Of a stretch of 33,263 nt of DNA, positions 5,001 through 29,900 are shown one piece after another; position 1 is the first letter of the stretch; every line of letters begins with the position of its first letter. The translations under genes were made by a program, and so were the position numbers. The stretch comes from Rhizaria sp. SCN 62-66 (lineage: Eukaryota). Below the pieces are notes generated by a model that made no database searches, was not told the DNA's origin, and worked only from the letters and a program-made list of their open reading frames with translations. The stretch spans positions 1 through 33,263 of the forward strand of contig MEDY01000331.1 in assembly GCA_001724265.1 (NCBI GenBank), in the 5' to 3' direction.

Positions 5001-8000
5001 GCAGCGCCGCGTCGGCCGCGGCTGCGGCGGGGTTCAGCGAAGCCGTGACCGAGGCCGAGCCCGCGGCGCCGGAGGCCGAGGCGCCAGCGCCGCCCGCGGA
5101 AGCAGAGGCGGAGCCAGCCTTGGCGCCGGCGTCGGCAGAAGAACCAGCGCCGTTGTCGCCGCTGTTGTTCTTGTCGCCGCTGCCGTTGCCGCTGCCGTCT
5201 TTGTCGCCGTCGTTGCCCGCGCCGTCGCCGCCGTTGGCGCCGTTGCCGTCGCCGTTGGCACCGCCGTCGTCCTTGCCCTTGCCGCCCGCGCTGCCGCTGC
5301 CGTCAGCGCCGTCACAGTCGCCGCCGTTGCCGCTGCCGTCGGCCGCCATCGCGCCCTCGGTCGCCGTCTTGCCGCCGGCGTTCTTGCTACCCGCGGACGC
5401 GGACGACGCGGATGAGGAGGCCGAGGCAGACGCGGCGGCGGAGGCCGAGGCGTGTGCAGCGCGGAGCTGGGCACGCCAGCCCTCGTGCAGGTGGTACAGC
5501 ACCTTGACCATGTCTTGGTCGAGCGCGGTGCCTGCGGCGGCGACGGCCTCGGCGCGCGTCACGCCCGCGGCCTCGCCCTCGAGCCCGCCACTAGCGACGG
5601 ACGCCGAGGCCGAGGCCGACGATAGACTGCGGCGCGCGGCGCGCAGCACGGCGGCCGGCAGCGCGGGCGCCGGGAGCCAGCGCGTGGCGACGGCCTCGGC
5701 GCCTGCGACGCGGCGGCCTGCGGCGGCGTCGACGGCGTCGAGGTTGGGGTCGGCGAGCCAGACGAAGAGGCGCAGCAGGTGGAACAGCGCCTCGAGCGGC
5801 GGGTGACCCAGCACGAGCTGCCGCACGCGGTCGCTCTCGGGCCGCGCCGCGACCTCGGAGAGCAGGTCGAGCGCGGAGCGGAAGCGGCAGCGCTGGACGA
5901 GAGCGTGCACGAGCGAGAGCACGAGCGCGGCGTTAACGTCGGGCGTGTCGTTGTAGAACGAGTCGTCCACAAGCCGGTTCATCGCGGCCGAGCCAGCGTC
6001 GAGTTCCTGCGCCGTCTCAGCCTCGGCGTTGGCGGCGGCGTCGGCGGCGTCGGCCGCGGCGGCCTCGTCGTCCTCGCTGCCGTTGCCGTCGCGGTCCGCG
6101 CCGCGTTCGTCGTCGTCCTCGTCATCGTCGTCATCGTCGTCGTGCAGCGCGTTGGTGTGGTGGCTGCGGCGCGCGATGCGGGCCGCGCGGCGCATCTGCC
6201 GCTGCGCCTCGCGCTGTTGGCGCGCGATCACGCGGCGCTTCGCAGCGGCATCGCGCAGCGCACGGCGGCGCGCGGCACCGTCCTCGTCGGCCCACGGTAC
6301 GCGCGCGCCGGGCTCGAGCAGAGGGAAGGCCTCGCAGCCGACGAGCGCGACGGGCAGCGTCGCCAGACTGTCAGCCGTCATCATCGCCGGCGTGCGCGCA
6401 GTGTAGCTCGCGAGCGCGCGCGACACGGCGGCGTCCTTGTCGAACTTGGGCAGCGCGGCCAGCGCGGCGGCCGCGGCCGTGACGGGTTTCTTGGCGCGCG
6501 CGGCGGCGATCTGCGCGGGCAGCGTGGGGTGCGCGGCGTCGAACTCGGCCTGCGCGGCGTCCGTGATGGCCGCCACGTGTGTCTTGCGCGCCGCGTTGAT
6601 AAGGTCGGTGACGACGTCGGCGTTGGCGCGCACCTTGGCGCGCGCGGCCGAAGTCGCGCGGTCATACTGCTCCTCGAGCAGCGCGCGCGAGACGATGGCG
6701 ACGCCGTGCTCCTCGTGGCCCAGTTCCGTCTCGATGTGCGCGCGCACGGGCTCGCCGGCCGCGCGGGACAGCGCGTGCACGGCGCCCGCGGCCGCTGAGG
6801 CGCGGGTCGTGTACCAGCCCTCGCTCGACAGCGCCGCGAGCAGCCGCTTGGGGCCCAGCTTTACCGAGTGCAGGTCGTAGACCGTCATGAGCCACATCGC
6901 GCGGGCGCCGCAGCGGCGCGCGGCCAGCGACAGACGCGCGCGCTCGACCGGAGTCAGTCCCACGGCGGGCAGCGGGGAGCCCGCGAAGCGCGCGGTGGCG
7001 ACCGGGGCGGCGTTGGCGGCGATAGGGGCTTCGCGGGCGAGCGCGCGCGCCTTCTCGACGGCGTCGGCGTCGAGCAGTGCGCGCCACGAGGCGGCCGCGA
7101 GCACGAGGGCGCGGATGACCTGCAGCGCGCTCTCGGCACGGTCACGGTCCATGTGCGCGGCCACGGCGGGCGGCACCACGACGCCGCTGGACACGGCCGA
7201 CTGGTGGTCGTGTTGTTGCTGCTGAGCGGAGCGCGCCTGGCTGGCAGCGGCGGCGCGGGTCGCGGCGAGGCGGCCGCGCGAGAGCGGGACGCTGCTGCGG
7301 ACGGCGCTATTGTTGTTGTACCCACCGTAGCCGTTGCCGTCGGCGTCAGCGTCGGCGTCGGCGAGCAGCGAAGACGCGAGCAGACGGCCCGAGGCGCCGA
7401 GACGGAGCGCGGCGACGGCGGACTCAGAGAGCATGTCAGCCGCGCCCATGAGCGCGGTCGCGTGAAGCTTCTCGTCACGCGTCGAGTAGAGCGACTGCGG
7501 GTAGCCGGCGCCGGGGAGCTGCTTGAGCGCGGCGCCGCGGGGGCCCGTGGCGGCGCGGACGGCCTCGATGCGCGGCGGCACGGAGCCAGGCGCCGAGAGC
7601 GACGTGACGGCGGCGTCGACGGGCGGCAGCACGGTGCGCCGCAGCAGCACGGCGGCCGTCTGGTAGTAGAAGGCGGCGCGCAGCGCGAGCGGTGCAGCCG
7701 TGGCGTCGAGCTGGTGCAGCGCCGTGTCGATGAGCGCGGCGCGGTCGGGCGCCGAGACGCCGCCGATGTCCTCGATCGCGGCCACGGCGTCGAGCTCCTG
7801 CAGCAGCGCTGTGTACGTCACCTCGGCCAGCGCGTCGGTCGACGACAGCACGGCGCCGGCGGCGCGTGCGGCCGCGTTGGACGGAGCCGGCGCGGCGCCG
7901 TCGACAACGATAACGTCGTCGTCGTTCTTGCCCGTAGCATCGCCAGAAGCGTCGGAGGAGTCCTTCTTGGACTTGGACTTGGCCTTGTCGTTGCCATCGT

Positions 8001-11000
8001 TCTTGTCGGCGCCGTCCTCGTCGTCGTTATCTTGGTCGTCAGCGTCGTCACTGTCGCCGTCCTTGCTCTCGTCCTTGTTCCCGCCGTTCTTGCCCTTCTT
8101 GCCGCCGGGGTTGTTGTTGCGGCGAGTCTGACGGATCACGAACGAGCCGTCGTGTGCCACGGACACCTCAGTCTTGGTCGCCGCGGCGGGCGCGTTGGCC
8201 GCCACAACGCCCGCAGGCAGCGTGACCAGGCCGCCGGGCAGGCGCGACAGCGGCTCGAGGCCCTCGGTCCACGAGTAGGACAGGAACAGCGACTCAAGGT
8301 AGCGCCGGTCGTAGTCGGTCAGAAACGACTGCAGCGCGAGGAAGCGCTCCCAGAGGTGCTTGCAGACTGCGCGCGACCACGCGGCCTGGCCCAGCCACAC
8401 CTTGCGGTCGCCTAGCCGCACCACAGCCGAGGTCGCGGGCACGGCCACGGGCTCGATGCCGCCGCCGACCGCGTACAGCCCGTGGCTGGCGACGGCCGCA
8501 GCGGCCGCGGCGGCGTCTCCCGCGGCGGCGGCGGCGGCGGCGGCGGCCCCGGCGGCAGCGTGCGCGGCGCGGGCCTTGCCGGCGTTGTACTCCTGACGCG
8601 CGCAGTCCTGGCGGTGCAGCTCGGCGGCAAAGAGCGCGAAGCAGTACTCGGCGGGCGCGTCAGCGCCGCCGTTGGTCTCGTCGTCGACGGTCGCGGAGCT
8701 GATGTGCGCCAGCTGCGCCAGCGCCAGCGCGGCCGGGTCGTCGTCCAGGTCCAGCGCGGCGCGCTCGCGCGGGGTGAGCGTGGCCAGCACCTGCTCGTGC
8801 AGACGGACCTGCGCGTACTTGATCCACGGCGCGGCGGCCGACGGGGACGCAAAGTTGGAGTGAGCCGAGAGCGAGGCCGACAGCGGCGGCTTGGCGAACT
8901 GGCGGCGGCGGAACGCGGCGAGGAAGGCCACGAAGTGCGCGATGGGGTCCGAGGGGAAGCACACGCGGACGAGCGTGCGCAGCATGTTAAACTGCCCCGT
9001 CTGCAGCATCGTCGACATAAGCAACGCGACCTTCTCCAGGCGCTGCGCGTTGATGTCGGCCAGACCGGCGTAGAGCGCGTTGCGCACAACTACCGCGTTC
9101 GCGCCAGCAGCACCACTAGCAGGGGCAGCCGAGCTGGAGGCAGAGTCAGCAGCGCTATTGCTCACGGTCATGACCTGGAGCTCGGGGACTGCAATCTTGG
9201 CCGAGAGCGCCTTGTCCTTCCCGTCGGGCCACGCCAGCACGTAGCGCGACGGCTTGGACACGATGTCGAGGATAGCCTGGAGCGGGAGACCGCGGGAGCG
9301 GTCCTTGGGCGGCGCGGCGAAGATCATCTGCGCCAGCCAGACCTGCTCGCGCTCGGTCAGCACGACGACGTGCTGGAGCACGCGCTCGACCACGGTCATG
9401 GCCTCGTGGTCGGCGGCGATCTGCTCCGCGCCCGCCGAGGCCGCTGAGGACAGCGCCTCGTACGACGGAGGAGCCGTCATGACACCGCCGCGGCGCGGGG
9501 GCAGCGCGAGGATCTGCGCCAGCACGGCCGAGGGGCGCAGGCCGGTCTGGAGCAGCGAGAGTAGCACCGTGACGAGCTCCGTCTCGGCCGTCTTCTTCTC
9601 CAGGTGCGCGTCCACGTCCGACACCGGGACGGGCTTCTCGTTGGCCGCGACGGCGGCCGCGGCCGCCGCAGCGGTGGAGCCCGGGGCGGGGTACGTGGTG
9701 TCGATCGTGGGCGTCGCGCGCCACCACTGGTCGAGCTCGAGCGGGAGCGGGACGTAGAAGAGCAGGCACAGCGACGCTACGACGCGCAGCACGTGGCCGG
9801 GCGGAGGGATCACACCCGAGAACGACTGCACAGGCTGGCCCTTGAGCTTGATCGGACTCGCGCCGGCGCCCGCGACGGGGATGCCGTGGGCCGAGGCCGC
9901 GGTGTAGTAAACCGTGACGAGTGCCTTGATGAGCCACCACAGCTCGGCATCCTCCTTGACCGCGGGGTCGTAGATCAGACTGCTGGCCGCGGGCCACGCT
10001 TGACCCAGGTCGCCCAGGTGCGTCCAGCGGCCCGCGCGTGCCAGGCCCTGCGCCAGCGCCACGGACGCCAAGTCCTGCGTCGTCGCGTGCGCCGTCGCGG
10101 CGGGCTTCGGCGGCAGCGCCAGCGGGGAGCGCACGCCCGTCGTGTCGAACTCGGCCGCGGCCGCGATGGCCGTGGGGTTGTACGCGTCCGCGATCCACTC
10201 GACGGCGATGGTGCACAGCGAGAGGCACAGCGAGTACATGTGGGTCACGGGCACCGAGCGCGGGCCCGTGCCGGCCGCCGCCGCGGAGGCGGACGACGCC
10301 GCCTGCGCGTGCCGCGCCGCCGCAGCCTTGGCGCTCGCCGCGGCCGCCACAGCGGGGTCCACGGCCGCCGCGCCGCGCGCGTTGATCGACGCGGCGCTGC
10401 TCGCGGCCGCGGCGGCGGAGGCCGTGCGGGCGAGCGCGCCAGTGGCGACCGAGGACTGCCCGCGCTCGCGGTTGCTGCACGACTCGACGACCTGCGCAAA
10501 GGCGTGGCAGCAGTCGTTGAGGCGCTGGAACATGAGCAGCCACGCCAGGCACCCGTCGGGGTCCGCCAGTGCGCGCGCCAGGGCAGCCTTGAGGCGGTCG
10601 TACTCGGCCGCGGTCTCCGCTGAAGACGCAGAGCCGTTGTAGTAAAAGTCGCCCAGGGACGGGTTTTTCAGCACGATGACAGCGTTGGTGATGGCGAGAC
10701 CGGTCTCGTTCTTGACCACGAGCGTCGGCCGCTTGCCGTCGTCGTCGTCGCTCTCGTCGGCGTTTTCCTCCGCGTCGGCCTGCTTGGCCGCTGTCGCGCC
10801 GCCGCCGCCGCGGTTGCGGCCCGTGGCCACAAGCGCCTTAATCGGGTCGAAGTTGCGCAGCGCCAGCCGCGCCGCGGCCGTGCAGAGCCGGTGGCACAGC
10901 GTCTGGATGAGCAGCGGGTCAAACAGCTCGCCACTGGCCGTACGCAGGTAGCCGGGGGGCGCGCCGCCCGCGCCCGAGAGCGACTCGGGGGACGCGGCGG

Positions 11001-12913
11001 CGAGCGCGACGGCGCGGCGCTGGTGCTCCCATGCGATGCGCAGCCCGGCGTTGAAGCCGGCCAGCGCGGCGTGCATCGGCGCGCAGCGCGAGAGCCAGTG
11101 GACGCAGAACTTCTCGAAAAACTCGATGAAGACGTCGATGAAGGTGCCCGAGCGCGCGGCGGCGACGGCGCGGCCGCGGGCGGCGGAAAAGATGTGCGAG
11201 ATGTGGTAGCCCAGGTCCTGCAGCGCAGTCGACAGCGACACGGGGCGCGCGGGCGTGAAGGCGAAGTGCACGCCGCGGTAGTCGCTAGGGTAGAAAGAGA
11301 AGAGCATGTCGTCGAGCGCGTTGTAGGGCTGCAGCGGTACCACGAGCGGGCGCGTCTGGAAGGCCGTCAGCAGCATCACCTGGCGCTCGGGGCGCGGAAC
11401 GAAGCGCAACAGGTGCTTGAAGTTGATGTTGGCGACGTCGCCGGCGTGCTCGGCGAGCGGCTCGAGCGCGTACCACGCGCGGTACGCCTGCAGCGCGGGG
11501 GTGAGCCCGGACGCGTTGAGGTAAGAGCACATGAAGCGATGAAACGGCGAGTACTTACCGAACGGCAGCAGCGCAGAGAGCAGCGCGTTGCGGGTGAAGG
11601 CCTGCTTGGCGGCGCGCAGCTTGTGGTACTCGTCGAGGCTCTCGCCGAACGTGGGGTCGTGGTCCAGGTGCGGCGACAGCGCCAGAGACTCGCGATCGTT
11701 GCGCTGCATGAAGAGCAGGCCAGCACGCGTGAGACGCATGACCACGCGCGTGAAGTCAATCGGCGCAAAGCCGGCAGACGCGGAGCGCACAAACGCAGCG
11801 GTCGAGTAGGGCTCCTGCAGTGAGCCGCCCGCGCCGCCGGAGCCAGAGCTCGAGCTGGAGCTGCTGCTGGTGCTGCCGTTTGCAGTGTCGAGAGCGCCGG
11901 TGACGCGCGCGGCGTGTGAAAGTGAGAGCTGGACGTCGTGCGGATGGATGCGCGTAATACCGAACAGCGCGCGGTTCGCGGGCGTCGACTGGGCCGCGTC
12001 CGCAGCGGCAGACGGGCCCACGGTCGTGAGCGCACGGGCCAGAGCCTCGGCAGCCTGAGGATGAGCATAAAAGACAGGATAAAACATAAATATGAGGATG
12101 CGTTCAAAAAGTAGTTCAATATATGTTTAATTCGAGTTTTGAACGTCTTAAATAGAGAGTTTCAGCTTATGCAGTTTCATATATAAAGCAAGAGCTCCAT
12201 TGATAGATAGATGTAACGCTGCGCTTGTTTCGATCGAGACATACCTGAGCGGCGACCTCGAGCGTGGGCCCCGCGTCGGGGGTGTTGCGCTGCGAAGCCC
12301 TTAGCTTGTTCATCTGCACCTTAGCAAGCGCTGCAGCCGTGAAGAAAGAGACTTCCTGGCGCAGAATAACGCCGCGGCGCGCGAGGTCGTGCAGGATCAT
12401 CTCCTGGAACGGCGGCGGCGCGCGCGCGACGATTGAGGCGAGCACGTGGGGGAACGCGGGCGGCAGCGTGGGACGGCCCATGAACACATACGACATGTCC
12501 GAGGTCTGGTTGAGCGCGGCGCCATTGACGAGGAGGCGCGCGTCGTGCGGGGACAGCGCGCAGCCTTCAAGCGGGAGGTAGTGGATCCACCACCTTACCC
12601 AGTCGGCCTGCTGGTGCTGTATCGCGCACCACAGCTCTGTGAAGTCGGGCGCGGGGAGCTCGGGGGAGATGGGCGTGGAGGCCGAGATCAACCGCATGTT
12701 AATGAGAAGGGACAGGAGCGCCTTGCGCTGCTTGGGGAAGCGCGCAGCGAGCTCGTAGACCTTGCCGAGAGGGAGACGACGCCCGTGGTTGTGTCCGCAG
12801 GGCTCGAGCAGGTCGACGTGGAAGAGCATCTCTTGCACGGTTTTGTGAATGGAGACGATATCTGACACAAGCATGTGCATGTGCAGCGCCTCGAACAAAA
12901 GGTCGAGGCTCAT
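1831..12913 (-). CDS. SPG11: Spatacsin (SPG11)-like alpha-solenoid protein, ~3,594 aa; complement(join(12245..12913,3886..12054,1831..3777))
   Basis: Three ORF-track ORFs join in phase 0 through introns 12055-12244 (GTATGT..CAG) and 3778-3885 (GTACGT..CAG). Collinear motifs recall spatacsin: ELWCAIQHQQADWVRWWI, EMILHDLARRGVIL, DFTRVVMRLTRAG, FHRFMCSYL, LVRVCFPSDPIAHFVAFLAAF, YDRRYLESLF, ALGYALWARL, VELIVAALSAFQDALHPTGVLYL. Start codon uncertain. Confidence 0.7.
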
Positions 12914-13930: not shown

Positions 13931-14813
13931 TCAACTGCGCAGCGACTTGAGGAGCTGGTCTCTAGCCAGCGCCAGCGCCGACGAGAGCGAGTGCTCAACA
14001 CCTTGGTCGTCGAGGCTAGTCAGCTCGCGCGCAGACTCACGGGAAACGATGGCCTCCGCGTCGAGGTCGAGCAGCATACCGTCGTCGACGATGTCGTCGA
14101 TGGCCTGTGAGAAATGAAGGAAATAGAAAATAAACACATAATCAGAAGCATATAAGCTATTGATACAAAGAAAGAAAAAGCCAAATACAAATTTCTCTGC
14201 AATGCCTTTGCTTCAAAGAGACAAAATATCATTTGCGTGAGATATCGTTGTGTGAGCAGACACGTACGAGGAGGACGACGTCGAAGTTCTCGGTGAGAAG
14301 CTTGACATCGAGGGTCTTCTTCAGCAGGCCGGTGAGGGTGTCGCAAAGAGTGGTAAGCACAGTGGCAAGGAGAAGCTCGTTCTCGTCAAGACTGCCCTGC
14401 GAGGGTTGCAAATCAACAAATATCAAAGCCAGAGAGCGACACAAAGTAGGCGTGAGCAACGATGAAAAAGCAGTGACAATTCTACAAACAGGAGCGAAGC
14501 AAGGCCAGATTAAACTGAAGCAAGGCAGTGAGATTTGTGAAAGATATATACCGCAGTAACATACCAGGACGTAGATGTTGAAGTCCGAGTAGCAGCGGTA
14601 CATAATGATGTAGTCGCGGAACATCAGCACCTCGGGCTCCGAGTGGCGCTCCAGCGAGGCGATCTTCTCTGTCAGGTGGTGCTCGAACGAGATCTGGTCC
14701 GCCTGCGCCGACAGCGCGGGGTCATAATACTTGGTCGCGATACGAGCTCCGCTGCTTTCCAGAAGCAGGATACCGCTCACCATGGGCGCTTTGAGGACGT
14801 CGACGGTCGCCAT
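13931..14813 (-). CDS. COPZ1: Coatomer subunit zeta, 183 aa; complement(join(14565..14813,14268..14396,13931..14104))
   Basis: Longin/sigma-adaptin motifs GILLLESSGARIATKYY, GSLDENELLL, LTENFDVVLL|AIDDIVDDGMLL and C-terminal ALARDQLLKSL. Two phase-0 introns, 14397-14564 (GTATGT..CAG) and 14105-14267 (GTACGT..CAG). Stop TGA. Confidence 0.93.
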
Positions 14814-15257
14814 CTAGAGCAGGTTACAAGATGAGCAATGAGACGGAAACAAAGGAATGAGTTGATGGAGTTATTGATCGATTTTAGATGTGTAAAAAGA
14901 GAAATGAGTAAAAAACTGCCATTGAAATTCGAAATTCATGCTAGCATTTCGAGACAACGATCGGGATCAACATGATGCTCGGTGATTTTATCGCTCGCTT
15001 CGACTGACTCATCCATCCTCGATCGCCAGCCACAGCCAGTCAGCGACTCAAAAAACGTCATGAACAGACACACAAGTCATACTGAATGAGCGACGGCCAA
15101 AGTAAATATCGACTATTATGTATTAATCAAACATTTATAACTATATATCCACATTTTATATCGCTAAAGATCAGGCCTGACCAATAACATGATGGTTTAG
15201 TAATTTAGTGCTGAAGTATAGCAGACTAGAGCTGCGTCCACTGACGTGTGAGGTGGC

Positions 15258-16184
15258 TCAGTCATCAACGACGTTCGCGGCCGCAATGCGTGCCAGCCTC
15301 GCCGTGCGCGGGTGGCGCGGGATGACGTCCTCGAGCCACTCGGCCAGCACGGCCACGCCCGTCTTGTTCTTGGCAGAAGCGCCGAACGCGATGAAGTCGT
15401 GCCTGTACATCCCCGTCCCTGCCCCCGCCGCCGTACTATTGACGCTGTTCGCGGCCGCCGCAGTACTGCCGCTGGGCGGAAGCACGTGGCTTGACGCCGC
15501 ACGGCTCAGGCTGCCGGTCTGCATCTGTCCTTGCGCCGCCTGCTGCTGCTGTTGCTGCTGTTGCTGTTGCGTTTGGGAAGCGCCGTGGATGGTGACGGTG
15601 ATGGTCTAACTGTCGCTCCGATCACCTCTACCGTTGCCTCCATTCGCGCCGTTCTTGCCGTTGCCGTCGCTCGGCGCCGTGCGGATGACGTCCCCCGGCT
15701 GGAACACAAGCGCGGGCGAGAGCAGCTCCCACACGGCGAGCCAGTCGGTGACGGCGTGGGCCGTGTGCGCGCCCTGCTTGTCCTGCTTGTTGGCCACGAG
15801 CGCGACGGGGATGTCCGCCAGCACCTCGTTCTGCAGCAGCGCAACAAGCTCAGCGCGCGCCTCGGTAAGCCGGTCGACGTCGGCGGCGTCGATGAGGTAC
15901 ACCAGGGCGTGCGCGTCGGCGTAGTAATGCTCCCACAACGAGCGCAGCGACGTCTGGCCGCCTAAGTCCCAACACTGCGCCACCGACCGCGCGGTCAGCG
16001 GCAGCCGCGTGACGTTAAGCCCCACGGTCGGGATCACGCGCGGGGGCCGCTGGGAGGGGATCTTGGAGGCCGCTAGCTCGGCCACGAACGAGGTCTTGCC
16101 GGCGTTGTCGAGGCCCAGGACGAGGACGTTGTACGTGTCCTTGCGGGTCCACTCGTGATAAAACCCCGACAGCAGGGTGTACAT
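15258..16184 (-). CDS. ARFRP1: ARF-related protein 1 (yeast Arl3-like) small GTPase, with an in-frame TAG at 15606-15608
   Basis: MYTLLSGFY N-terminus (no Gly2, ARFRP1-type), GLDNAGKT, PTVGLN, WDLGGQTSLRSLWEHYY, ANKQD. The final strand, G5 motif and helix (RHDFIAFGASAKNKTGVAVLAEWLEDVIPRHPR) lie in the same frame beyond the TAG, ending at TGA 15258. Confidence 0.88.
15538..15570 (-). repeat. CAG/CAA poly-glutamine tract within the ARFRP1 insertion
   Basis: Plus strand ctgctgctgctgttgctgctgttgctgttg encodes about 10 Gln in the ARFRP1 frame downstream of the internal TAG. Confidence 0.8.
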
Positions 16185-16762: not shown

Positions 16763-18856
16763 ATGGATCCCTCCCAAGCTCCCCGTCCTGCCTCTACTTC
16801 GGCGACGTCTTCGTCTTCGTCGTCGTCGTCCTCGAAGCCCAAGAGCTCTTCCTCTTCGTCTTCGTCTTCGAGCTCGAAGCCTTCGTCTTCCGCCAAGCCT
16901 TCCAGTAAGCCGACCGGCAAGCCCACGGGCAAGCCTGCGATCGACCCCAACGCGGACGGCGTCAAAAAGGCCAAGTCGCACTTTCTGTGCGAGCCCGAGT
17001 ACTTCAACTCGCTCCCGCGCGTTCCACAGCGGCCCAAAATGCTCCGCGTCCCGCACTCGGCCGCGCTGCTCGCGCTCACCACGTGCTACGACGACGACGC
17101 GCTCGACCTCGCGCTCCCCGTCGCCATCCACACGGACCGCTTCCACGGGCTCCCGCTGGACCCCGTCGACGGGGACCGGTACGTGTGGCCCGCGGCGCTG
17201 GGTCCGCGCGTGCTCGACCCGCTCGACGCCGACATCATCTCGCCCGACGTGCTCGCCGCCGCGCGCAACGCCGCGCGCGCCGACCTCGTGCTGCCTTCCT
17301 CGGCCATCGTCCACGCCGCCCGCGCCGCCGCCGCCCGCGGGGACGCCCCGCTGAGCGCGATCACGCGCCACGTACCGCCGGACACCAAGACGCGCCTGGC
17401 GAACATCGACGACGTGAAGCTGCGCTCCGAGGCCACGCGCGAGGCGCTCCGCGGCACGCGCGTCAACTACCTCAACCGTAACGACTACGCCGAGGACAAG
17501 GGCCTCTCGTGGGCGGCCGAGCAGGAGCTGATCAAGCGCGGCGAGGCCGAGGCCCGCGCGCGCGCCGCTGCGTCCGTGGCCGTCGACCCTGACGCCGGCA
17601 TGACGCTGCTGGAGCGCGTCGAGGCGTCGTTCACGCGCGCGCAGCAGCTGCCGAAGCACCCCACCAAGCCCGGATGCAAAGTCGTCGAGGTCTTGGACCT
17701 GCTGCCCGACACGTCGCTGTGCTTCGCGCCCGCGGCCGGCAGCGGCTTTGTGTGGGTCGACTTCACGCGCATCGAGGACGCCGCGCTCGACGCAGACACT
17801 GCCGCGCACCTGGGCCGCCTCCGCGACGCTACCACGGGGCCCGGCATGACCGCCGCCGCCGTGGCCGCGGCCGAGAAGAGCCTGCTCGAGGCCGCCCGCG
17901 CGGCGCGCGCTGAGACGGCCAAGCAGAGCCTGCTGGCGTGGACCTTCGTCAAGGACCGGCGCGCGCGCGGCGGCGCGGGGTTGGCGGCCAACGTGTCCTC
18001 CGGCACCGGCATCGGCGGCATGGGGCTGTACCGTCCCCGCACCGCGGCGCAGACCGCGGCGGCGCGTGCCGGCGTCAAGCGCGCGCGCGCCAGCGCCCGG
18101 ATGGGCGACGACGACGACGACAACGGCGGGGACGACGACAACGACTACGAGGATGAGGACGACGAGAACGTGGACGAGGACGCATTCGACGAGGATGCCG
18201 CCGCCGCGCGCGACGCCACCACGCGCGCCGGTCTCAGCACTGACTCGGACGCCGGGCTCGAGGATGACGACGACGACGACGACGATATGGAGGACGACGA
18301 CGAGTCAGGCTCCGGCGCGCACGCTCGTTCTTCGAAGCGCGCGAGCAAGGCCGAGGCGCGGCTGCAGGCCAAGCGCGCGCTGCTTTCGACGCTGGGCCGC
18401 GTCAAGAACACCCCGCAGGAGGCCGCGCGCGCGCTGGCCGAGGTCAGGGCGCTCAAGGCCGCGGGCGCCGCGGGCGCTGCCGCCGCGGCCGCGGCCGACG
18501 CCGCGCTGGCGGCGGACGGCACCGTAGTGACCGAGTGGGTGCGCGAGTTCACCCGCGCCCCCGTGGCGGACCTGGAGCGCGACGACAACATCTACCTCGT
18601 CTTCAGCGCCGGTGCCGCCGCGGCTGCCGCCGGCGGCGACGGCGCGACCGTGAGTGACGATGTGGCTGTTGACGGCGACGGTATCCGCCGCGGCGTGGTG
18701 CGCTACGGCCGCATGCGCCAGCGTGTCGCGCTGCGCAAGCGCATTGCCAACGCGCAGGATCCCTGCGACAAAATTATCAAGTCGCGCGCGTCGCATATCG
18801 TGCTCAAGCAGCAGAACCGCGCTGTTCCTGTCGCTGAGATTGAGGCGCAGCCTTGA
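16763..18856 (+). CDS. PAF1: RNA polymerase II-associated factor 1 homologue, ~697 aa, single coding exon
   Basis: FLCEPEYFNSLP..PQRPKML, HGLPLDPVD, LDPLDADII, VEASFTRAQQLPKHPTKPGCKVVEVLDLLPD and EWVREF match Paf1 family motifs. ATG 16763 follows a pyrimidine tract; stop TGA. Confidence 0.88.
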   Translation: MDPSQAPRPASTSATSSSSSSSSSKPKSSSSSSSSSSSKPSSSAKPSSKPTGKPTGKPAIDPNADGVKKAKSHFLCEPEYFNSLPRVPQRPKMLRVPHSAALLALTTCYDDDALDLALPVAIHTDRFHGLPLDPVDGDRYVWPAALGPRVLDPLDADIISPDVLAAARNAARADLVLPSSAIVHAARAAAARGDAPLSAITRHVPPDTKTRLANIDDVKLRSEATREALRGTRVNYLNRNDYAEDKGLSWAAEQELIKRGEAEARARAAASVAVDPDAGMTLLERVEASFTRAQQLPKHPTKPGCKVVEVLDLLPDTSLCFAPAAGSGFVWVDFTRIEDAALDADTAAHLGRLRDATTGPGMTAAAVAAAEKSLLEAARAARAETAKQSLLAWTFVKDRRARGGAGLAANVSSGTGIGGMGLYRPRTAAQTAAARAGVKRARASARMGDDDDDNGGDDDNDYEDEDDENVDEDAFDEDAAAARDATTRAGLSTDSDAGLEDDDDDDDDMEDDDESGSGAHARSSKRASKAEARLQAKRALLSTLGRVKNTPQEAARALAEVRALKAAGAAGAAAAAAADAALAADGTVVTEWVREFTRAPVADLERDDNIYLVFSAGAAAAAAGGDGATVSDDVAVDGDGIRRGVVRYGRMRQRVALRKRIANAQDPCDKIIKSRASHIVLKQQNRAVPVAEIEAQP

Positions 18857-20003
18857 ACTTGACTCTTTTGTAATGAACTGTTTATGACAGGGACATAGTT
18901 GTATTGTGGGATTTTAAGTGTGGGTTTGTATTGGTACGACTGTGTCACAACGCATGCTATGGTTTTGTGTTGTTTCGAGTGCACTAAGGGGCATATGCAT
19001 GCTCTTTCGTGACCGTTTGTTGTTGTTGCGCCCGCGCAGGCTTTCATGTGGCTATGGGGGCTAGAAAAGTGTGACACGGGCCAGAGCGAAATACATTATA
19101 ATCGATCCGTCTGGAGCGCATAATACGCCTTGCACAAGAAACCTCCGTTTGTGTAGGATATTATTTGTTATTTATACATGACGATCTTTGATCATGTCGT
19201 AACAAAGAAGGTCCGTAATTTTCTTGTTCCACACGTGCATTTTTGTCTTCCGTCACTGCTCTTGATTGGTCTCTGTACCTATCACTCGCTGCAGTACCAG
19301 CATGTTTTGCACATAAGATCAATAATGTGCCATTATTTTGATGTTGTGCGCTGCCATTGGTGCTTGGCATGCTTTTGTGCTGCTGTGGAGGTGCCGCGGT
19401 GTTCGATGCCCCCTTGCTGTCGTGCTGACGCTGCTCACAATCTTTAGCTCATAGCAGGCATTACTCGAAGTGTCAGGCACTGTCCACGCACCAGAGTATT
19501 GTAGGCTGCGTTTTGAGTGCGATATGCTGTGCCACATTTGAAGCTGGCGGTGTTGTTGCATGCATAAAGAGTCAACATCGACTGTCACTCTTCATGTTTG
19601 CTAACCAAGCTTTGCCGAGCCGCTATCAGAGCCAGAGTCATTGCATTAAGCGACGCATAACAGCATATGCAACTGTCGCATATGCCTACTGTTTGGAGCA
19701 GCCGCGTCATTGTCTGCAGCAGCGACTATGTGAGCTATTGTGCTTGGATATCGCCGCTGATGCAACATGAGCAACTGTGGTTCAACACGCGGAAAGAGCA
19801 CAGATAACACGCAACTTGCGTTGATGAGAGAGAATTTAATATTGGCTGTGTATGAGTATGCGGAGTATATAAGAATACCTGTCTATACGAATGATGCGGA
19901 CTAATAGCCCAATCTAACCTCTCACTTTCTCGTCTCATTCTTTGCTTAACACACGTGCATCGCTTGCACAAACACACCACAACCATAACACACGCCTGCA
20001 CAG

Positions 20004-21813
20004 ACCTTCGCGGTGGGCCTGACCGCGACGGTTATCATTGCGTCGCTGTTGCTTTTGCTGCGCACTGTCGCGTACAAAGCAGTTGCCACTTGTGCGGGCT
20101 CCTTTGCGGCTGGCTATCCGTACGTCTATTCCGTCAGCATATGTGTAAAGATTACAAAGAACTGCAAATTTGTTGTAATGTAGCAATGTGGAATTAACTT
20201 CGAGTTTTTATATTGATTTATTGAACTAAATTGAGTTAAACGGCTGATATTCAAATCTGCTATTCCCAAATATGCATCAACGACACTTTAGGAGCCGTGA
20301 AGTGAACCCCGATGTGACGCAGACCAACCTCGTCCCGCGCTACATCCGCACGTTTCTCACGAGCACCGGCGTGCTCACTGTCCTCTTTCTTGCTCTCGCG
20401 CGCTCGTTCTCGCTGGAACACGCAGCGCGCGCGCGCGCCGCCGCCGCCGCCACTGCACTCCTTGCGTCGCAACAGCACGAACCGCAACTCAAGTCCAATA
20501 GCCCTAGCTCTAGCTCAAGCTCGAGCTCTAGCTCTAGCGTGGCTGCGACTGGCCAGACGGATACTGCCGTGGCTACGCTGATTCCGCGCCGGCGTCGTTT
20601 GGTGTTTCTCGTGCTCGTTGCTATTGTCTCTTGTCTTGCGTTGTTCCCAGTTGTCTATCACGGTTACATCGCACCGCTCAAGGCGAGGTAAGTCCGCGCA
20701 TTGAGAGTAACATACTATACTTCACTATATTTGGTCTTAACATAGTGCTCTCACAATAATGCGTGTCATTGTGATGAGTTCTTTCAGGTGTTTTGTTAAT
20801 TTATGATCATTCATGTCAAATCATAATCTCACAACATTTGTTTTTCGTGTTTTGTTCGTTCGTGTAGGTCCAACGACTTCGAGTGCTCTTTGGGCACCAA
20901 CGGCGGCGCGGTGCCTCCCGGAGCCCTGTTGGCGTCCGACGTCTACGGTACACCTGAGCAAAAGAGCACCGATGTTGCGGCTGCAACGACACCCCCAGAG
21001 ACTACGAGCGACAGCGCAGGAGGCCTCAAGAGCGACAGCGCCGCTGCCCCCGCCCCGCCCGCGACCGCCGCCGCGGGGACTGCTGGCGGCGACGCTTCCC
21101 GTGCCAACGGCGGCGTGGGCCCCCTGATCCCCAACGGCGTCAGCGGCCACACCTACTACATCATCTGGGTTTGTCTCTGGGCCTGGTACGCGGGCGCGCT
21201 GGCCGCGGCGGCGCGCGCGACGGCGCGGCGGCTGCGCGCGGGCGGCGCCGTCAACGCGATTGCGGGCGCGGACAGCCCGGCTGCGACCGAGGGCGGCGCG
21301 GCGACTGGGACGAGGAGCAAGCTCGCAAGCGTGCCTCTGAGTGCCAGTGCCAGCGCGAGCGCGAGCGCGAGTGCTGCGACGGCGGAGGACGGTGTCGCCA
21401 GCGCTGAAGACGAACCCTTGCTTTCCCTATACCGCCGCACCGCCTCCAGCTGCGGCCGCCGCTCCGGCAACGCGGCCGCCACGGGCAGCGGCGGCGGCAG
21501 CGATGGCGGCGACAGCGGTGGCGGCGACTACGACGGCGATGTCGCCGGCGGCCGTGGCGGTGGCGGCGGTGCGTGTGCGCCCGTGTCCGGTGCCGTCCGG
21601 TCCCCGTCACTCGCGGTCACGCTGGCGCCGCTGCTGGTTTGGGGCTTGTGCGCGTGGGAGCTCTGGGTGACGGTTTATTACGCCTACCACAGCCCGCAGC
21701 AGGTGATGCTGGGCGCGGTGGCGAGTATCCTGCCCGTGCTTACAGTCATTTGGGCTGTGGACACCGCTAGGGTCGCCACTGCGGGCGCGGCGTGGGCCCG
21801 GAGGAAGGCGTGA
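20004..21813 (+). CDS. Multi-pass membrane protein of the FIT (Scs3/FITM)/PAP2 phosphatase fold; join(<20004..20119,20292..20687,20868..21813), first exon unresolved
   Basis: Two His motifs NGVSGHTYY and TVYYAYHSPQQVMLG resemble FIT DISGH and TxxYFH motifs; about six hydrophobic segments. Introns 20120-20291 (GTACGT..TAG) and 20688-20867 (GTAAGT..TAG), both phase 2, keep the frame. Exon 20004-20119 encodes TFAVGLTATVIIASLLLLLRTVAY and is absent from the ORF track. Confidence 0.65.
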
Positions 21814-22282: not shown

Positions 22283-24280
22283 TCACTTTTTGGCGTTTTT
22301 CTTCTTTCCGCCAGAAATAACCACAGGCACATCTTGCCCGCCGCCGACACTGGCGCTCGCACTGCGGCCAGCAGCAGCGCTGCCGGCATTGCTCGCTTCC
22401 GCCGTAGCCGCGTCCGCAGCGACGGACTTACTGGTCCCCGCATACCCCTCGTAGAAGTACTTCTTGGTGTTGGCTTTGGCCAGCGCGTGACCAGCACTTC
22501 CCGGACCGGCGGAGCCGCCGAGCACGCTGCGGGCGAACTGCGCGTCCGCCTCAGCCGTCGCCGCGTCCGCCGCCGAGGCCTGCAGCCACGGGAACTGCGG
22601 CTGCGCAGGGGAAACGGCCAGCGCGGTCACCGCTCTGCCGCCGTCACCGGCACCGCGGTCACCGGCGGTGGCGTCGGGGGGCCGGTACAGCCCGGCGCCC
22701 GAGGGTAGCGAGCCGACCGCGCCCGCGCCGCTCTTGGCGCTGAAGCTGCCGGGCTTGTAGCTGCCGGGCGTGGAGCCCGCGAGCGAGGAGTTCCGGCTCC
22801 GCTGCGCCTGCTGCGGGTCGCCAGCGCCGGCGACGGCCACACCGCCGCCCGCCTCGCATGTGCCGTCGCTGTTGTAGCTGTACGCGTCGCCGTTGTTGCA
22901 CCCGCTGTTCCGATTGCCGTTGTTGCTGACAGCGCTGTTCTGTGTGTTGCTGCGCTCGCGCGCCTTTTGTGCCGCGTAGTAGATATTCACACCCGAAATC
23001 TCGTCGAACATCTCGTCTTCAGCCGCGGCGGGCTCAATCACCGGCTTGTACTGCTTCTTGCCCCCCGCCGTGCCGAGACTCGCGCCGACGGAGCTGCCGC
23101 TCAGGACGTGGCCGGTCTTGTTGCTGAAGCTCGTGCGGCCCGCAGATCCGTTGGTTGCGGCCGCGGCGGCGGCTGGGGCTGAGGAGACGTTCATCGGGCC
23201 GTTTGAAGGCCCCGCACTGTACACCTGGCCGTTGAGCGACACAAAGCCTGCCGCGGTCGAGTTGGCCGCGGCCGCCAGTGGGGCCACGGCGGCAGAGTCG
23301 CTCCGACTCATGTCGGTATTGTTGTGATCCGAGAACTGCACGTAGTCAGCGCCGCCGTCGTTGCTGCCGTCGTCGCCGCCGCCGCTGCTGTCGATGCGGA
23401 ACTCTGGCGCACAACAGTCACAGTAGCGCGCCTTGACGCGCCGCAGCAGCCGCGCCCACAGGGTGAGGTTACGGCCCGAAAAGGCGAAGCAGAAGGTGAC
23501 CCAGAGCCCGCACGAGGCGAGCATAAACGTGTGGGCAATGGTAAGGCTGTAGTTGTAGCGCGAGGTGTAAGAGCTGGAGATGCGGACCGTGAGCAGGGTG
23601 GTGAAGTAGGCGCAGAAGACGATCATGAAGAGCATGTAGCGGCCCGAGACGATCGTGAGCAGCGTGCGGCGCGCGGTGCCCAGGTCGGCACGGTGCGCGT
23701 GGTACTGGTGGTACAGTGAGGACGGCAGCAGGTAGAACATGACGATGCCGACGAGCACGAACCATGAGTAGAAGAGCACGAACTGGGAAAAGGCGCTGTG
23801 TTCCGAGGTCGCGACGAAGCAGAACCAAGACTTGCGCTCCATGTCGATCTTGTCCCACAGCGCGGCGATGAACAGGAACACAACAGGGAGCCCAAAAGAC
23901 GCGGTGACGTAGGTGCTCTCGGCGGCCTTCATGTCGCCCGCGACGCGGCCCTGCGTGATCGAGAGGTGGAAGTTGAAGCAGATGAGCATTCCCCAGAGCC
24001 ACGTGGCGAAGGCAAAGTAGTACATCCCCACGGCCTGCAGCACGCACGGGCAGTTGTTCACGCCCAGAATCGTAAAAAACGCCATGCCGGTGGTGGAGAA
24101 TCCCAGATAGGCGGGGAGCCGCGTGGGAAAGTGCCGCCGCGAAGGGAAAATGGTGTATGAAAGCAGCGTGAAGACCGAGGCGAGGAGCGAGATGTAGGCG
24201 AAGATGTGACCCACAGTCCGCGAGTCGTCCTGGAGCGCCGCCAAGTTCAGCGCCAATGGGTGGGCAAGCAGGGACGACAT
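22283..24280 (-). CDS. Seven-transmembrane GPCR-like receptor (cAMP-receptor/GCR1/frizzled-like clan), 665 aa with long disordered C-tail
   Basis: Seven hydrophobic segments in the first ~270 aa; RRHFPTRL in loop 1, CVLQA..MYYF...TWLW...ICFN at TM3, WFCFV in the second extracellular loop, YCDCC after TM7. Single exon, stop TGA. Confidence 0.82.
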   Translation of the reverse strand: MSSLLAHPLALNLAALQDDSRTVGHIFAYISLLASVFTLLSYTIFPSRRHFPTRLPAYLGFSTTGMAFFTILGVNNCPCVLQAVGMYYFAFATWLWGMLICFNFHLSITQGRVAGDMKAAESTYVTASFGLPVVFLFIAALWDKIDMERKSWFCFVATSEHSAFSQFVLFYSWFVLVGIVMFYLLPSSLYHQYHAHRADLGTARRTLLTIVSGRYMLFMIVFCAYFTTLLTVRISSSYTSRYNYSLTIAHTFMLASCGLWVTFCFAFSGRNLTLWARLLRRVKARYCDCCAPEFRIDSSGGGDDGSNDGGADYVQFSDHNNTDMSRSDSAAVAPLAAAANSTAAGFVSLNGQVYSAGPSNGPMNVSSAPAAAAAATNGSAGRTSFSNKTGHVLSGSSVGASLGTAGGKKQYKPVIEPAAAEDEMFDEISGVNIYYAAQKARERSNTQNSAVSNNGNRNSGCNNGDAYSYNSDGTCEAGGGVAVAGAGDPQQAQRSRNSSLAGSTPGSYKPGSFSAKSGAGAVGSLPSGAGLYRPPDATAGDRGAGDGGRAVTALAVSPAQPQFPWLQASAADAATAEADAQFARSVLGGSAGPGSAGHALAKANTKKYFYEGYAGTSKSVAADAATAEASNAGSAAAGRSASASVGGGQDVPVVISGGKKKNAKK

Positions 24281-26009
24281 CGGGCGACGCGGGTGGTGGC
24301 GAGGACGGGGACTGGCCGCGGGGGACGAGGGAGGTTAAGTTGTGGACTCAGGAGGTGGCCGCGCGCGGCGGGGATTTAGGCCTGGAAGCGGGAAAAATGA
24401 ATGACGCAAGGCAAATAAGGATGCTTATATAAAATAAAACAGTGTTTTGTGAGTTCACAAAGTAAGTTTGTTCGCAGACACTCAATGGGAGGCTGGAGCA
24501 CAGGAGAAGTCGACGTGGGGGTGGAGGGTTGAGAGAGGTGACATATGGTCAAGTCAGAAAAGAGTCATCAAGCGACACAAGCATGGTTCCATGAGATATT
24601 ATAAAGGACACATATGTAAACACCACGGATAAAACAAGCACTGACATGGCTGTGCTACTGACGGTTGGGAAGATGTATTTTAGGTGTTACAAATTTGTAA
24701 GACGTCGCTTTTGAGTCGACCTGCCTGTCAAAACGGAGATCGAGGTCATGAGGCAAAAGGTGCACAACGGACCAGAACCAGGGCCTCTGGAGCTGTGTGT
24801 CTAATTAGTTGCTTCAAATGAGCGTATGCTTATCATACTTTAATCGTTTTGGTGGGAAATCGATTTGTCAACTGTGAGGTTAATTGCGTTGAGACCATTG
24901 CTTGGTGAGACCATGTTTGGTGTTCCTGAAGAGTCCCGAGCTAGGCTTCACTGATATACAGTCACACCAAAAGAGCAGAACCGCAACCTTTGAGTTATTT
25001 TCCCCGGTTGATAACTAATTCACGTTTGTTGTCATGTCGTGTTGCCCCTGGTTTCGTCACTCTGAGCGACTGACCCACATTGTCACAAGGCCGCTGGAGA
25101 GGTTGACTCAAACCGTTTGCCTTGCGCGACACTTCAGCAGCTTGTGTGGGGCTGCTACCGCTACCTGGTTTTTCGGTTCATTCATTATATTTCTTGCAGC
25201 TTAAACTTACTATTGGCACCACTGGTATGCACATAGACTCTGTCGTTGTCAGCTCTTCTGCTCTGAACATGTTTTGGAGATATCTCGCGTTGAAACGATC
25301 CAAATCTTGCGCATACAAAAAGATTTAGGATAAATATAGTCCATTGTAAGACGATTTTGTTTTCAATTTTGAAATGACGACCGTGAAGATGATGGAGCCA
25401 TGCTTCATTATGTTTTCACCACAAATTGTTTGAGTGAGGTGTATATTGTATGGGAGACGAGGCACCACATCTTCAGCAATCTTCAGAGTAGCCGCGTCGC
25501 TGTTGTTAGCGCAAAAGACGTTATTCTTAGCTACAATGACGTGATTATAACAGTGGGACATATTTTCCGCTTCCCCCGAGCCATTTTTTATGATGTATTT
25601 TCCTCTTCAAGAGGTTGCCGCAAAGACCTCGTCGACTCGGTTTTGTCTTCCCTATTTTCGTTTGTATACGGGACCAGCATTGATTTTTATTACATTTGCT
25701 TGTAGAGGCCGCGTGATAACTTTGGGCTATATTGCAACTCAGGGCAGCACTCTTCAATGTCACGTCTCTGCATCACTTAGCATGTTTATCCACAAGTCAT
25801 GCCGAATGCCGCAAACAGTCGCCTCCTTTCGCACATCTCGTGCTTGTCGCTGCCTCCGGGCGTGAAACGCATGCACCACACTCTATTGTCTATGTTGTAC
25901 TATATGCATGTCTTCTTAGCGTGTGCTGCTTTCAATGTGTGCGTATTTCGTTGCGAAACTGTGCTCACCTCACCTCTCTGGGTCAAAGTCAAGTCTCCCC
26001 ACGCCTGTA

Positions 26010-26039
26010 CCATGAGATCGCACACCATGAGATCGCACA
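26010..26039 (+). repeat. Perfect 15-bp tandem duplication
   Basis: CCATGAGATCGCACA twice in direct succession. Confidence 0.8.
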
Positions 26040-26970
26040 TCTAACGACGTGCTATGATCTGATGCTACCTTGATTTAACGCAACACTAATCAATTTTTTT
26101 CTAGTTGGCCTGCGTCAGATGTTGTGGTTTTGTCCCACATTGCGCTGTTTCTATCGCAACACCGTCATCGATCCGTTGGCGCGCACCTGCTGTTTGTGGC
26201 AGTTCTTCTTGACTCTTGACAACGACGTTTGGCACATCCGATCATGTTTCCACGTTGTCTACGTCCGCATCGCGCGAAGTTATTTGTCCGGTTTCTGATT
26301 TTTTCCACGCTTTGCGCATGTGTTTGGCGTTTTGCGTCTCGCGCCGTGTTTGTTTTACTCCGTGACTTGCGTATTTGTTGCCCCCTCTGTCAACACGCTC
26401 TCTCTGTCGTTTTAACGCGCGTACATTGAGCTAAGGTGTAGAGTTTGCGACGTGTGGTGTGAATTAACTGTATTAGTGACAATGTGACGTGCATTTACTC
26501 ATATGTGTGACGTGTTTAACTCGGGGCACGTAGCATCGCCGTCGCCTCCGTCGCCACCGTGGTCGCAACCGTGGTCGCCACCATAGCCGCCACAGCAGCC
26601 ACACTATGGGTGCCATTACACTACCCGTCGCCTGACGTCATTCATGCTTCTGTGTTGTGTTTTTGTTTCAGACAAGTTTTTGTAATAACTAAGTCACATA
26701 GTCGGAAATGTCAACTTTTGTCAGTTGAGTATCATTTTTTTTTCTTTGACACGTTCCCAACATTGTCATGACGCTCTTACAGAACATGGAATAACGTGCG
26801 ACGGTCACTCGGCATAAGGAACACGATGCGAACGTGTGTTTTGATCTATTAATACTTTTTGACTTTTGCAATCCTTCGTCCAACAGCTCACTCATTCGCA
26901 ACATCTCTTTGTTCTCTTTTTCCTATTTCTTTTTGTGTGTTTCGTTGCTTCACAGGGTACACCGAGGGAA

Positions 26971-29900
26971 ATGGATCCAATTCCACCTCAACCCTCGAGC
27001 GGTGGCGGTGGCGCTGGCGCTGGCGCTGGCTCCAAGCACGACAGCGAGGGTGACGCGACCGCGGCCACTCTCGCCGCGCTCTCCGCCGCCGCCACGATGC
27101 CCCACAACGACGACAACAACAACAACAGTAGCAAGAGCCGCCGCAACCATGACGCCAAGGGCGGCGAGCAGGGCATCGAGCTGGCGCTGCTGGCGCCTGA
27201 GGCCACCACGGTCGGTTTGCTCCCGTCCGCGCTGGTCTCGCCGCTGCACGACGACGACGAGGACCTCGAGCCCGTCGTGCTGGCCGACGAGAAGGACGAT
27301 GAAACCGCGGAAGAGGCCGCCGAACGCAGGGCCAAAGAAGAAGCCGCGGCCAAGGAGCTGGCGATGTTCAACGCTGTGCCTTTCGGCAAGCTCTTCCGCT
27401 TTGCTGACAACCTCGACGTCACGATGATGTGTTTCGGCACCCTCGGCGCCGTCGGCGCGGGCGCGCTGTTCCCGGCCTTTTCCCTCATCTTCGGCCAGCT
27501 GCTGGACGATCTGAACGGCGACGGCGACTTCATGACCTCTGTGATCAACCTCGCGTACACTTTCCTGTATATGGGCGCCGGTATGGGCGTCGGCGCGTAC
27601 CTTTCCGTGTCGATGTTCATGACAACGTCGGAGCGCCAGTCGAAGATCATGCGCGAGGAGTACCTCTCTGCGCTGTTGCGGCAGGAGATTGGCTGGCACG
27701 ATATGCAGAATACCGGAGATTTGGCGGTAAAGCTAACTTCTGAGACCCGCAAGGTCCAGGACGGTCTTGGTGACAAGTACGTCAATACTGCCTCACCTTT
27801 TTAAGTCTTTGATATGTTTTTTTTGAGATTTGAGAACTTCAATATTATATTAGCACTTCTATATTTGTTTTGAGGTCATCGTTTTTTCATTTATGATTCG
27901 CTCACACATTCTACCGATCTGTTGTCTTTTCGCTGTCATTTTCAGGCTTGCTCAAGTTTTGCAGCAGTCGTCATGCTTTCTTGCCGGCTTCGTCATCGCC
28001 TTTTACAAGGGCTGGGAGTTGACTCTGGTGATTCTTGCGACGCTGCCCGTGCTCATGGCGTGCGGCGCCTTCATGGGCTTCGTCATGGCTGGCGCCAACG
28101 CCGAGGAGCAGAGGAACGACGGTGAGGCCGGCGTCATCGCCGGCGAGGCCATCTCGGGCATCCGCACCGTCGCCGGGCTGCAGTACGAAGACAATCTCAT
28201 CAAGCGCTACATTGCGCGCGTTTCAGACTCGTTTGTCGCCGCCGTGCGCAAGGGCTGGATGCAGGGCGTCGGCATCGGCGCGTTCATGCTCGTCATTTTC
28301 TCAGTCTACGGCCTCGGTCTCTGGTACGGCTCCGTGTTGCTACGCGACGGCAAGGACCGCTGGCCCGGCTTGCCCTACACCGGCGGCGACGTCGTGGCGA
28401 TCTTCTACGCGCTCATCACAGCCACCATGGGCGTGTCGCAGGCCGCGCCGCACTTCGCCGCGATCGTCACCGCGCGCTGCGCCGCGCGCCCGCTGTACGA
28501 CGTCATCGACCGCGTGTCCAAGATCGACGCGCTGGACCGTCTCCGCGGCAAGAAGCTTGCCTCTGTCACGGGCGACATCACGCTCGAGCGCGTTACGTTC
28601 ACCTACCCGTCGCGCCTCGAGACCCAGGTCCTCAAGGATCTGTCGCTGTCGTTTGCCAGCGGACAGACCATCGCGCTCGTCGGCGCGTCGGGCTGCGGCA
28701 AGTCCACGATCATGCAGCTCATCGAGCGCTTCTACGACCCCGACCAGGAGCGCGTCAAGCCCACGGGCCTCGCGGCGGTCGCTGAGGACCACAACGCCGA
28801 TGGCAACAAGGACGCCAGCGCTGCCAACGCTACCGGCGCTGCCGGCGCTGACACCAAGACTGCTTCTGCAGCGGTTCCTGTTTCTGCGACTGCGTCTTCT
28901 TATGCTGCCCCTGCTGCTGCTGCTGCTGTTAATGCTGATGCTGCTCCTGCTGCTGATGTCGCCGCCACCTCTGCTGCTTCCGCAGCTGCTGCTGAGGATG
29001 AGGAGCCGTTCGTGGTTGGCCGCGTGCTTGTGCGCGGCTGCATTGCGAGCGCCGACGGCCCGGGCGAGGAGTGCGATACCGACCTCCGCGAGCTTAACGT
29101 GGCTTCGTGGCGCGAGCACGTTGGCATGGTCGCCCAGGAGCCCGTGTTGTTTGCGGGCACGATTAAGGAGAACATTCTGTACGGCCGCCCCGACGCCACG
29201 GACGACGAGATCCGCGCCGCTACAATCGCGGCCAACGCGCACGGGTTCATCAGCAAGATGAAGAAGGGCTACGACACGTACGTCGGCGAGGGCGGGCGGC
29301 TGCTCTCCGGTGGCCAGAAGCAGCGCGTGGCGATTGCGCGCGCACTGGTCAAGAACCCGCGCATTCTGCTGCTTGACGAGGCGACGTCTGCGCTCGACAC
29401 CGAGTCCGAGCGCATCGTGCAGCGCGCGCTGGACAAGGTCATCGGTGACAAGTCGAGCCGGCGCACGACGCTGGTGATTGCACACCGCTTGTCGACGATC
29501 AAGAACGCGGACCGTATCGTGGTGTTTGACATGGGCCGCATCGTTGAGGACGGCACGCACGACGAGCTGCTCGTCAAGGGCGGGCTCTATGCCAGCATGG
29601 TCCATGTGAACAACACCGACGCGACCGGTGGCGCTAACGGCAAAGCCGCTACTGCAGCAGCGGGCGACGCTGGCACTGATCTTGCGAAGAGTGACAGCGC
29701 TGTGAGTGCGAGCAACAACGACGGCAACGCGAACGACGAGGAGGACGATGAGGAGGACGAGGTTGTGGACGAGGACGGCGGCGACGCCGCTGCTGGCGCT
29801 GCTGGCGGTAGCGTCGCCAGTACTCGAGAGCATAGTCGCGTGTCTCTGTCCGCCGAAAAGACCACTGGCGCCGCCGAGACGCGCATCACGATCCCCGAGG

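Follow-up and report, generated by a model that had tools for sequence, protein, structure and literature searches.

The window analysed here, meaning the whole stretch of 33,263 nucleotides (contig MEDY01000331.1, deposited under Rhizaria sp. SCN 62-66), carries near its middle an ARFRP1-type GTPase gene on the reverse strand. ARFRP1 in animals and Arl3p in yeast are Arf-family GTPases of the trans-Golgi. The frame runs from an ATG at 16184 to a TGA at 15258-15260, and its 308 codons include a single stop, codon 193, a TAG read on the reverse strand from 15608 to 15606 in the context GAC AGT TAG ACC ATC. Residues 14-156 match the Pfam Arf domain (PF00025; E=2.5e-36, with 125.2 bits where the cutoff is 22.3), and the best named protein matches are of the ARFRP1/Arl3p type at 35-47% identity in a one-way search, leaning weakly to fungi, aphelids and animals, with chytrid, mucoromycete and aphelid proteins among the better ones. 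The N-terminus, MYTLLSGFY, is without Gly2 and aligns to the ARFRP1 consensus MYTLLSGLY. G1 (GLDNAGKT, 24-31), G3 (WDLGGQ, 72-77) and G4 (NKQD, 132-135) precede the TAG and G5 (SAK, 270-272) follows it; a complete set of these motifs is therefore encoded, but split by the TAG, and does not form one polypeptide under the standard code. Domain, MYTLLSG start, encoded motifs and identity are all as in ARFRP1/Arl3p; what sets the protein apart is an insertion of about 105 residues between α4 and β6, predicted to be disordered, which holds the in-frame TAG, is shared with one relative (P0003) and has an analogue in another protein (P0259). Gln makes up about 8% of the gene product, and a run of ten Gln begins 13 codons downstream of the TAG. 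The features of the locus are the following:

15258-16184, reverse strand: ARFRP1-type GTPase gene, intronless, 308 codons including one in-frame TAG (PF00025; ARFRP1/Arl3p matches)
15606-15608, reverse strand: in-frame TAG, codon 193, +4 base A (ORFs end there on six of six ENA contigs; RNA contig with 0 mismatches)
15720-16184, reverse strand: N-terminal part of the G domain, codons 1-155, with G1, G3 and G4 (PF00025; block pLDDT means of 74-94 for residues 1-150; Foldseek)
15402-15719, reverse strand: low-complexity insertion, codons 156-261, predicted to be disordered, with the TAG and the Gln run (pLDDT; homology to P0003)
15532-15580, reverse strand: CAA/CAG repeat encoding the Gln run, masked as a repeat in the read comparison; contigs break there
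15261-15401, reverse strand: C-terminal part of the G domain, codons 262-308, with predicted β6 (264-268), SAK (270-272), α5 (274-290) and a terminal helix (model; BLASTP)
15261-15524, reverse strand: downstream ORF P0244, M221 to D308, 88 aa, as called in public assemblies (identical on six contigs)
15581-15897, reverse strand: polyA metatranscriptome contig, colinear across the TAG (X5 record 19)
15200-15425, reverse strand: second RNA contig, with the 3' coding part, the TGA and the 3' UTR (X5 record 18)
15135-15318: contig of run X8 (record 29) at the 3' end of the gene

The TAG is real and fixed in this organism. Among the contigs in ENA, the 192-aa ORF that ends at it occurs in two forms, P0122, identical to the window and present on four contigs, and P0002, present on two, and with the downstream ORF the split arrangement is found on six of six contigs, in two alleles. 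P0002 carries C71W, just before the G3 motif (codon 71 of the window lies at 15972-15974); both alleles of the gene, with Cys or Trp at this codon, end at codon 192. No full-length ORF of this gene was present among public proteins of 169-539 aa. The stretch is present, at least partly, in nine of 11 listed runs from six studies of wastewater, activated sludge and bioreactors dated 2015-2025, one of which may be the source of the window itself. In the contig comparison no differing letter was listed at the TAG in runs X2, X4, X5 and X8; each of these runs has depth in the bin 15507-16007, and X5 record 19 is the one listed piece that spans the TAG. DNA and RNA contigs alike read TAG, with no sign of the CAG or other sense codon that the original prediction had proposed looking for at the site. 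A base-call error, which had been put forward there as a serious alternative, is refuted: the agreement of six of six contigs, two alleles and several studies rules out an error of sequencing or assembly, and the broader idea that the TAG is such an error, or else a rare variant confined to one sample, can, on the same agreement, practically be dismissed.

The TAG is also transcribed, and it is not spliced out. Of the 332 letters of X5 record 19, a contig from polyA RNA, 317 align to 15581-15897, with neither a differing letter nor a gap; only 25 of the aligned letters lie past the TAG, fewer than the 31 required for bridging, and the last 15 letters of the contig belong to the masked CAG repeat, for which reason this contig is counted as evidence of colinearity only. 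Run X5 was taken as RNA on account of its short contigs and of several bins left uncovered, including 24525-27000, which is evenly covered in the DNA-like runs X2 and X4; parts uncovered in X5 (e.g. 14004-15005 and 24525-27000) are not evidence of silence. A control for splicing is provided by a contig of run X8 that joins 14395 to 14564 and thereby removes the 168-nt GT..AG intron of the zeta-COP gene (14396-14563, reverse strand). This spliced contig shows that mRNA of the organism is present in X8. Five introns were recognised in the window, all of them AT-rich and with a donor that reads GTAAGT, GTACGT or GTATGT; lengths could be delimited for three of them (108, 168 and 190 nt), the boundaries of the other two being only partly read. 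No intron resembling these five was found around the TAG, as had been claimed from the letters alone, and the RNA contigs gave no sign of a splice removing it. It nevertheless has to be considered that an unrecognised GC-rich intron, or RNA editing, could take the TAG out of the mRNA. Contigs of both DNA and RNA end near 15426-15440 and again at the CAG repeat, and 15426-15580 is without cover by any listed RNA contig, which leaves such an event some room; against it stand the colinearity of X5 record 19, the unlikeness of this stretch to the introns of the window, the zeta-COP control, and the motif TVTIH, which lies three codons past the TAG in the same frame and is conserved in a relative whose ORF is uninterrupted. 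Taken together, removal of the TAG from the message is highly improbable.

The relative in question, P0003, is a single ORF of 353 aa from a JGI metagenome, whose identity to the product of the window's gene is 51% in BLASTP and 61% when counted over aligned columns. P0003 has a homologous insertion in which TVTIH, SLSRAAS.H.LPP and RHDFIA.GASA.N..GV are conserved, and the C-terminal part of the window's gene matches it with 19/32 identities (BLASTP, E=1e-11). At the position of the TAG P0003 has a sense codon, in a column that is variable and poorly aligned (Gly in one alignment, a gap in another), and the column as aligned allows no ancestral residue to be inferred. Since P0003 is continuous, with a sense codon there and with TVTIH conserved beyond it, the stop appears to be lineage-specific and recent. 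An insertion of low complexity, rich in Ser, Thr and His, also occupies the α4-β6 loop of P0259, a more distant ARFRP1-like protein of 323 aa that comes from a different source, and this loop seems to accept insertions repeatedly. As regards further DNA of the organism or of the source of P0003, the scan of metagenome contigs gave a single, unrelated locus (L001) with a canonical ARFRP1 gene that contains introns; the scan of genome contigs returned 23 loci, all of them Asgard-archaeal Arf-like genes, and the scan of viral contigs returned none. The tandem Arf-Arf fusions that came up in the representative search (P0245 and others) are irrelevant here.

An AlphaFold2 model of the read-through protein, built on a 20-sequence alignment, reaches a mean pLDDT of 70.3. 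It is confident at about 1-150 and 262-308, with block means of 70-93 over the latter, whereas pLDDT falls below 50 for 156-206, 219-235 and 237-261; the strand at 264-268 corresponds to β6 and the helix at 274-290 to α5. According to the model, the TAG would thus lie within a disordered loop of about 105 residues between α4 and β6, and the 192-aa product would be without β6, G5 and α5 and should be non-functional as a GTPase. Three claims of the original prediction gain from this: that the TAG comes after G4 and before the last strand, G5 and the final helix agrees with sequence, motifs and model alike; that it sits in a low-complexity insertion holds, codons 156-261 being modelled as disordered; and that a G domain cut at this point should not fold is supported, the model placing all three missing elements past the TAG. 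The top Foldseek matches of the model are Arl/Arf chains (E of about 5e-13), which confirms the Arf/Arl fold; as the alignments span only 134-158 columns and come without query ranges, they offer no independent test of the packing of the C-terminal part.

Whether UAG is still used as a terminator in this organism can be approached through the remaining genes of the window. The other long open frames are eight, with about 7,300 codons counted from stop to stop, and are free of stops by construction; they were preferred to a GC3-based scan for in-frame stops, most of whose candidates lay in antisense frames, and to a codon-usage score, which told frames apart only poorly. With the ARFRP1-type gene included, the long open frames come to about 7,500 codons and contain a single in-frame TAG, which bears out the earlier observation that it is the only one in several thousand; the four longest frames (5,617 codons) hold 0 TAG, 136 CAG and 241 CTG. 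Eight gene ends could be placed, three with TAA, five with TGA and none with TAG, and a ninth is ambiguous:

137-139: TAA, end of the eL18-like gene
1831, reverse strand: TAA, end of the large gene
13931: TGA, end of the zeta-COP gene
15258-15260, reverse strand: TGA, end of the ARFRP1-type gene
TGA, end of the PAF1 gene
TGA, end of the ORF at 20827-21813
TGA, end of the Frizzled-like receptor gene
TAA, end of the ABCB gene

It had been claimed that nine clearly placed genes end without ever using TAG. The absence of TAG stands for the eight ends listed, but one of the presumed ends, the TAA at 3862-3864, is not a gene end: it lies inside a 108-nt GTACGT..CAG intron (3778-3885, reverse strand) whose length is a multiple of three, and the 2,754-codon frame (ORF 3862-12126) continues in phase for about 648 codons through the ORF 1831-3861 to the TAA at 1831. 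The label "SPG11-like" that this gene had been given finds no support, as Pfam detects neither a spatacsin domain nor any other in either part. If 20-25% of genes are assumed to end in TAG, zero of eight has a chance of 10-17%, and with so small a sample the result is suggestive but weak. The ambiguous case is a gene of the SelK/SelG family (627-1158, forward strand; PF10961, E=6.5e-07). If a GTACGT donor at 910 is spliced to the CAG acceptor at 1148-1150, the gene ends in TAA; unspliced, the frame passes a Cys codon at 909-911 and stops at a TAG at 939-941. The unspliced form, if real, would show the organism using TAG as a terminator. The window contains neither tRNA genes, whatever their kind, nor eRF1.

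How, then, is a fixed, transcribed TAG in the middle of a conserved GTPase to be understood? The original prediction had proposed that UAG might be a sense codon or be read through. This proposal survives insofar as neither a sense codon at the site nor a splice was seen, but frequent reassignment is disfavoured and nothing positive was found for decoding. A UAG that no longer terminates, having been reassigned or being at an early stage of codon capture, gone from gene ends and reappearing at neutral sites, would account for zero TAG among eight gene ends, and a single in-frame TAG at what the model suggests is an unconstrained position is what codon capture predicts. Codes with UAG alone reassigned and both UAA and UGA kept as stops do exist, as PMC5304391 documents for the rhizarian exLh (UAG=Leu; 384 in-frame UAG in 71 genes) and for Iotanema spirale (UAG=Gln; 204 in 126 genes). 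The window resembles these two in having an in-frame UAG in a conserved gene, in terminating with UAA and UGA, and in lacking TAG among the few gene ends that could be placed; it is unlike them in that their genes each contain several in-frame UAG, at positions that are conserved, whereas the window offers a single one among about 7,500 codons, and its position is not conserved. Because these densities are so far apart, a frequently used UAG sense codon is very unlikely. Recurrent in-frame UAG at positions conserved for one amino acid, the usual mark of a reassignment, were not found either: there is one TAG, in a variable and gapped column. The zero of eight itself is within reach of ordinary usage at the assumed TAG share, the SelK-like gene would end in TAG if its last intron is unspliced, and the window is without a tRNA gene that could speak for decoding. 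Amoeboaphelidium protococcarum, a fungus-related protist with UAR=Gln that is cited in PMC5304391, comes to mind in view of the aphelid proteins among the better ARFRP1 matches, but there UAA and UAG are both reassigned, whereas here TAA ends three of eight placed genes. A change of the code, even an incipient one, is accordingly held to be doubtful. Were it true, the window would show an early stage of a UAG-only nuclear code change in progress, another independent case outside the ciliates; and if UAG had lost its terminator role, the organism, a protist abundant in wastewater and open to renewed sampling, would represent a codon-capture intermediate, a stage predicted by theory but seldom seen.

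Somewhat less improbable, although still unlikely, is efficient readthrough of this one UAG, in which case it would be the full-length GTPase that functions, and the stop would be kept or at any rate do no harm. The stop stands on six of six contigs ahead of an intact, homologous downstream frame, transcripts are present on either side of it, and the residue inserted at this position would, judging from the model, not matter. Yeast offers a measure of what may be expected: according to PMC13192750, premature stops in Gln-rich low-complexity domains led to full-length protein at levels of 2-8%, about 7% sufficed for wild-type-like growth in snf5-Q225X, and total Gln content of the message correlated with premature-stop readthrough, a correlation under which the Gln content of the present gene and its run of ten Gln would be favourable. 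The same source reports the effect to be strongest with flanking Gln codons and C at +4, whereas here the flanks are AGT and ACC (Ser-stop-Thr) and the +4 base is A. The likeness to snf5-Q225X and other yeast leaky stops thus extends to a premature UAG or UAA in a Gln-containing low-complexity region with an essential part downstream; the difference is that those are laboratory mutants with measured readthrough, while the present stop is natural and fixed. Neither a readthrough-promoting context nor a downstream structure was found at the TAG: the 132 nt downstream fold with z=+0.83, and their fold is equalled or bettered by 161 of 200 shuffles. Programmed readthrough would further be expected to conserve the stop, and in P0003, the one close relative, its place is taken by a sense codon. 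Basal readthrough, by analogy with yeast, is still plausible. The best reading of the locus, to which about an even chance can be given, is that the TAG represents a nonsense allele, young but already fixed, in an organism with the standard code, null or rescued at most by such basal readthrough; what had been an alternative in the original prediction has become the leading explanation. A real, fixed, transcribed and unspliced stop fits it, as do the sense codon of P0003 and the intact G motifs and downstream frame expected of a young lesion, the predicted position of the TAG in a disordered loop ahead of β6, G5 and α5, the rarity of in-frame TAG compared with the far richer known UAG-only codes, and the absence of a readthrough signal at the site; the yeast cases of PMC13192750 may serve as a precedent for tolerance in Gln-rich low-complexity domains. 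Against the nonsense allele it must be said that a fixed loss of function in a widely conserved gene, across six studies from 2015 to 2025, is not to be expected, except where the organism can do without the gene or the population is clonal, that zero TAG among eight gene ends also fits a code in which UAG does not terminate, that polyA transcripts on both sides of the stop mean that the message is not eliminated, and that the yeast precedent calls for flanking Gln codons, which are absent here.

If the nonsense allele is taken as the explanation, the following sequence of events can be proposed. The organism would most likely read the standard code, with the TAG a genuine premature stop that has become fixed in every sampled population of this uncultured wastewater eukaryote, presumably one of low diversity. 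The stop would have arisen in the long, disordered low-complexity loop that the lineage had inserted between α4 and β6. Termination there would release a 192-residue fragment lacking β6, the guanine-binding G5 and α5, which is not expected to be a working GTPase, and full-length protein would be made only when a near-cognate tRNA occasionally reads the UAG; in yeast the amino acids placed at UAG are Gln, Tyr and Lys (PMC4150775). Whichever amino acid is inserted would probably be tolerated, because the residue would sit in the disordered loop. The gene would then be a very young null or hypomorphic nonsense allele and not evidence of a new code; it is important to stress that the standard code, the low level of readthrough and the recent origin of the stop are each what we infer. 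On these terms the locus would be a clean natural example, of modest interest, of a fixed premature stop in a conserved trafficking GTPase, probably tolerated by virtue of lying in a disordered insertion, where rare readthrough yields working protein. The public metagenomes that contain this contig should suffice to decide.

Some further features of the window deserve mention. A 683-codon open frame (22283-24334, reverse strand) encodes a Frizzled/Smoothened-type membrane region (PF01534, E=1.6e-08), and this gene, together with those for PAF1, ABCB and SelK, shows that the DNA is that of a eukaryote, without placing it. The ABCB protein has relatives at 58-59% identity, its named matches reaching at most about 40% and coming from many supergroups. 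Between about 24400 and 26800 lies a stretch of about 2.4 kb with about 45% G+C and no long open frame, in which the DNA-like runs are even and RNA cover from X5 is absent; for an otherwise compact window, this spacer is unusually long. Finally, 17500-18500 and 20000-21500 consist of GC-rich low-complexity coding sequence with acidic, Ala and Gly runs, and attract many contigs of other organisms at 90-95% likeness, giving rise to depth spikes and spurious joints.
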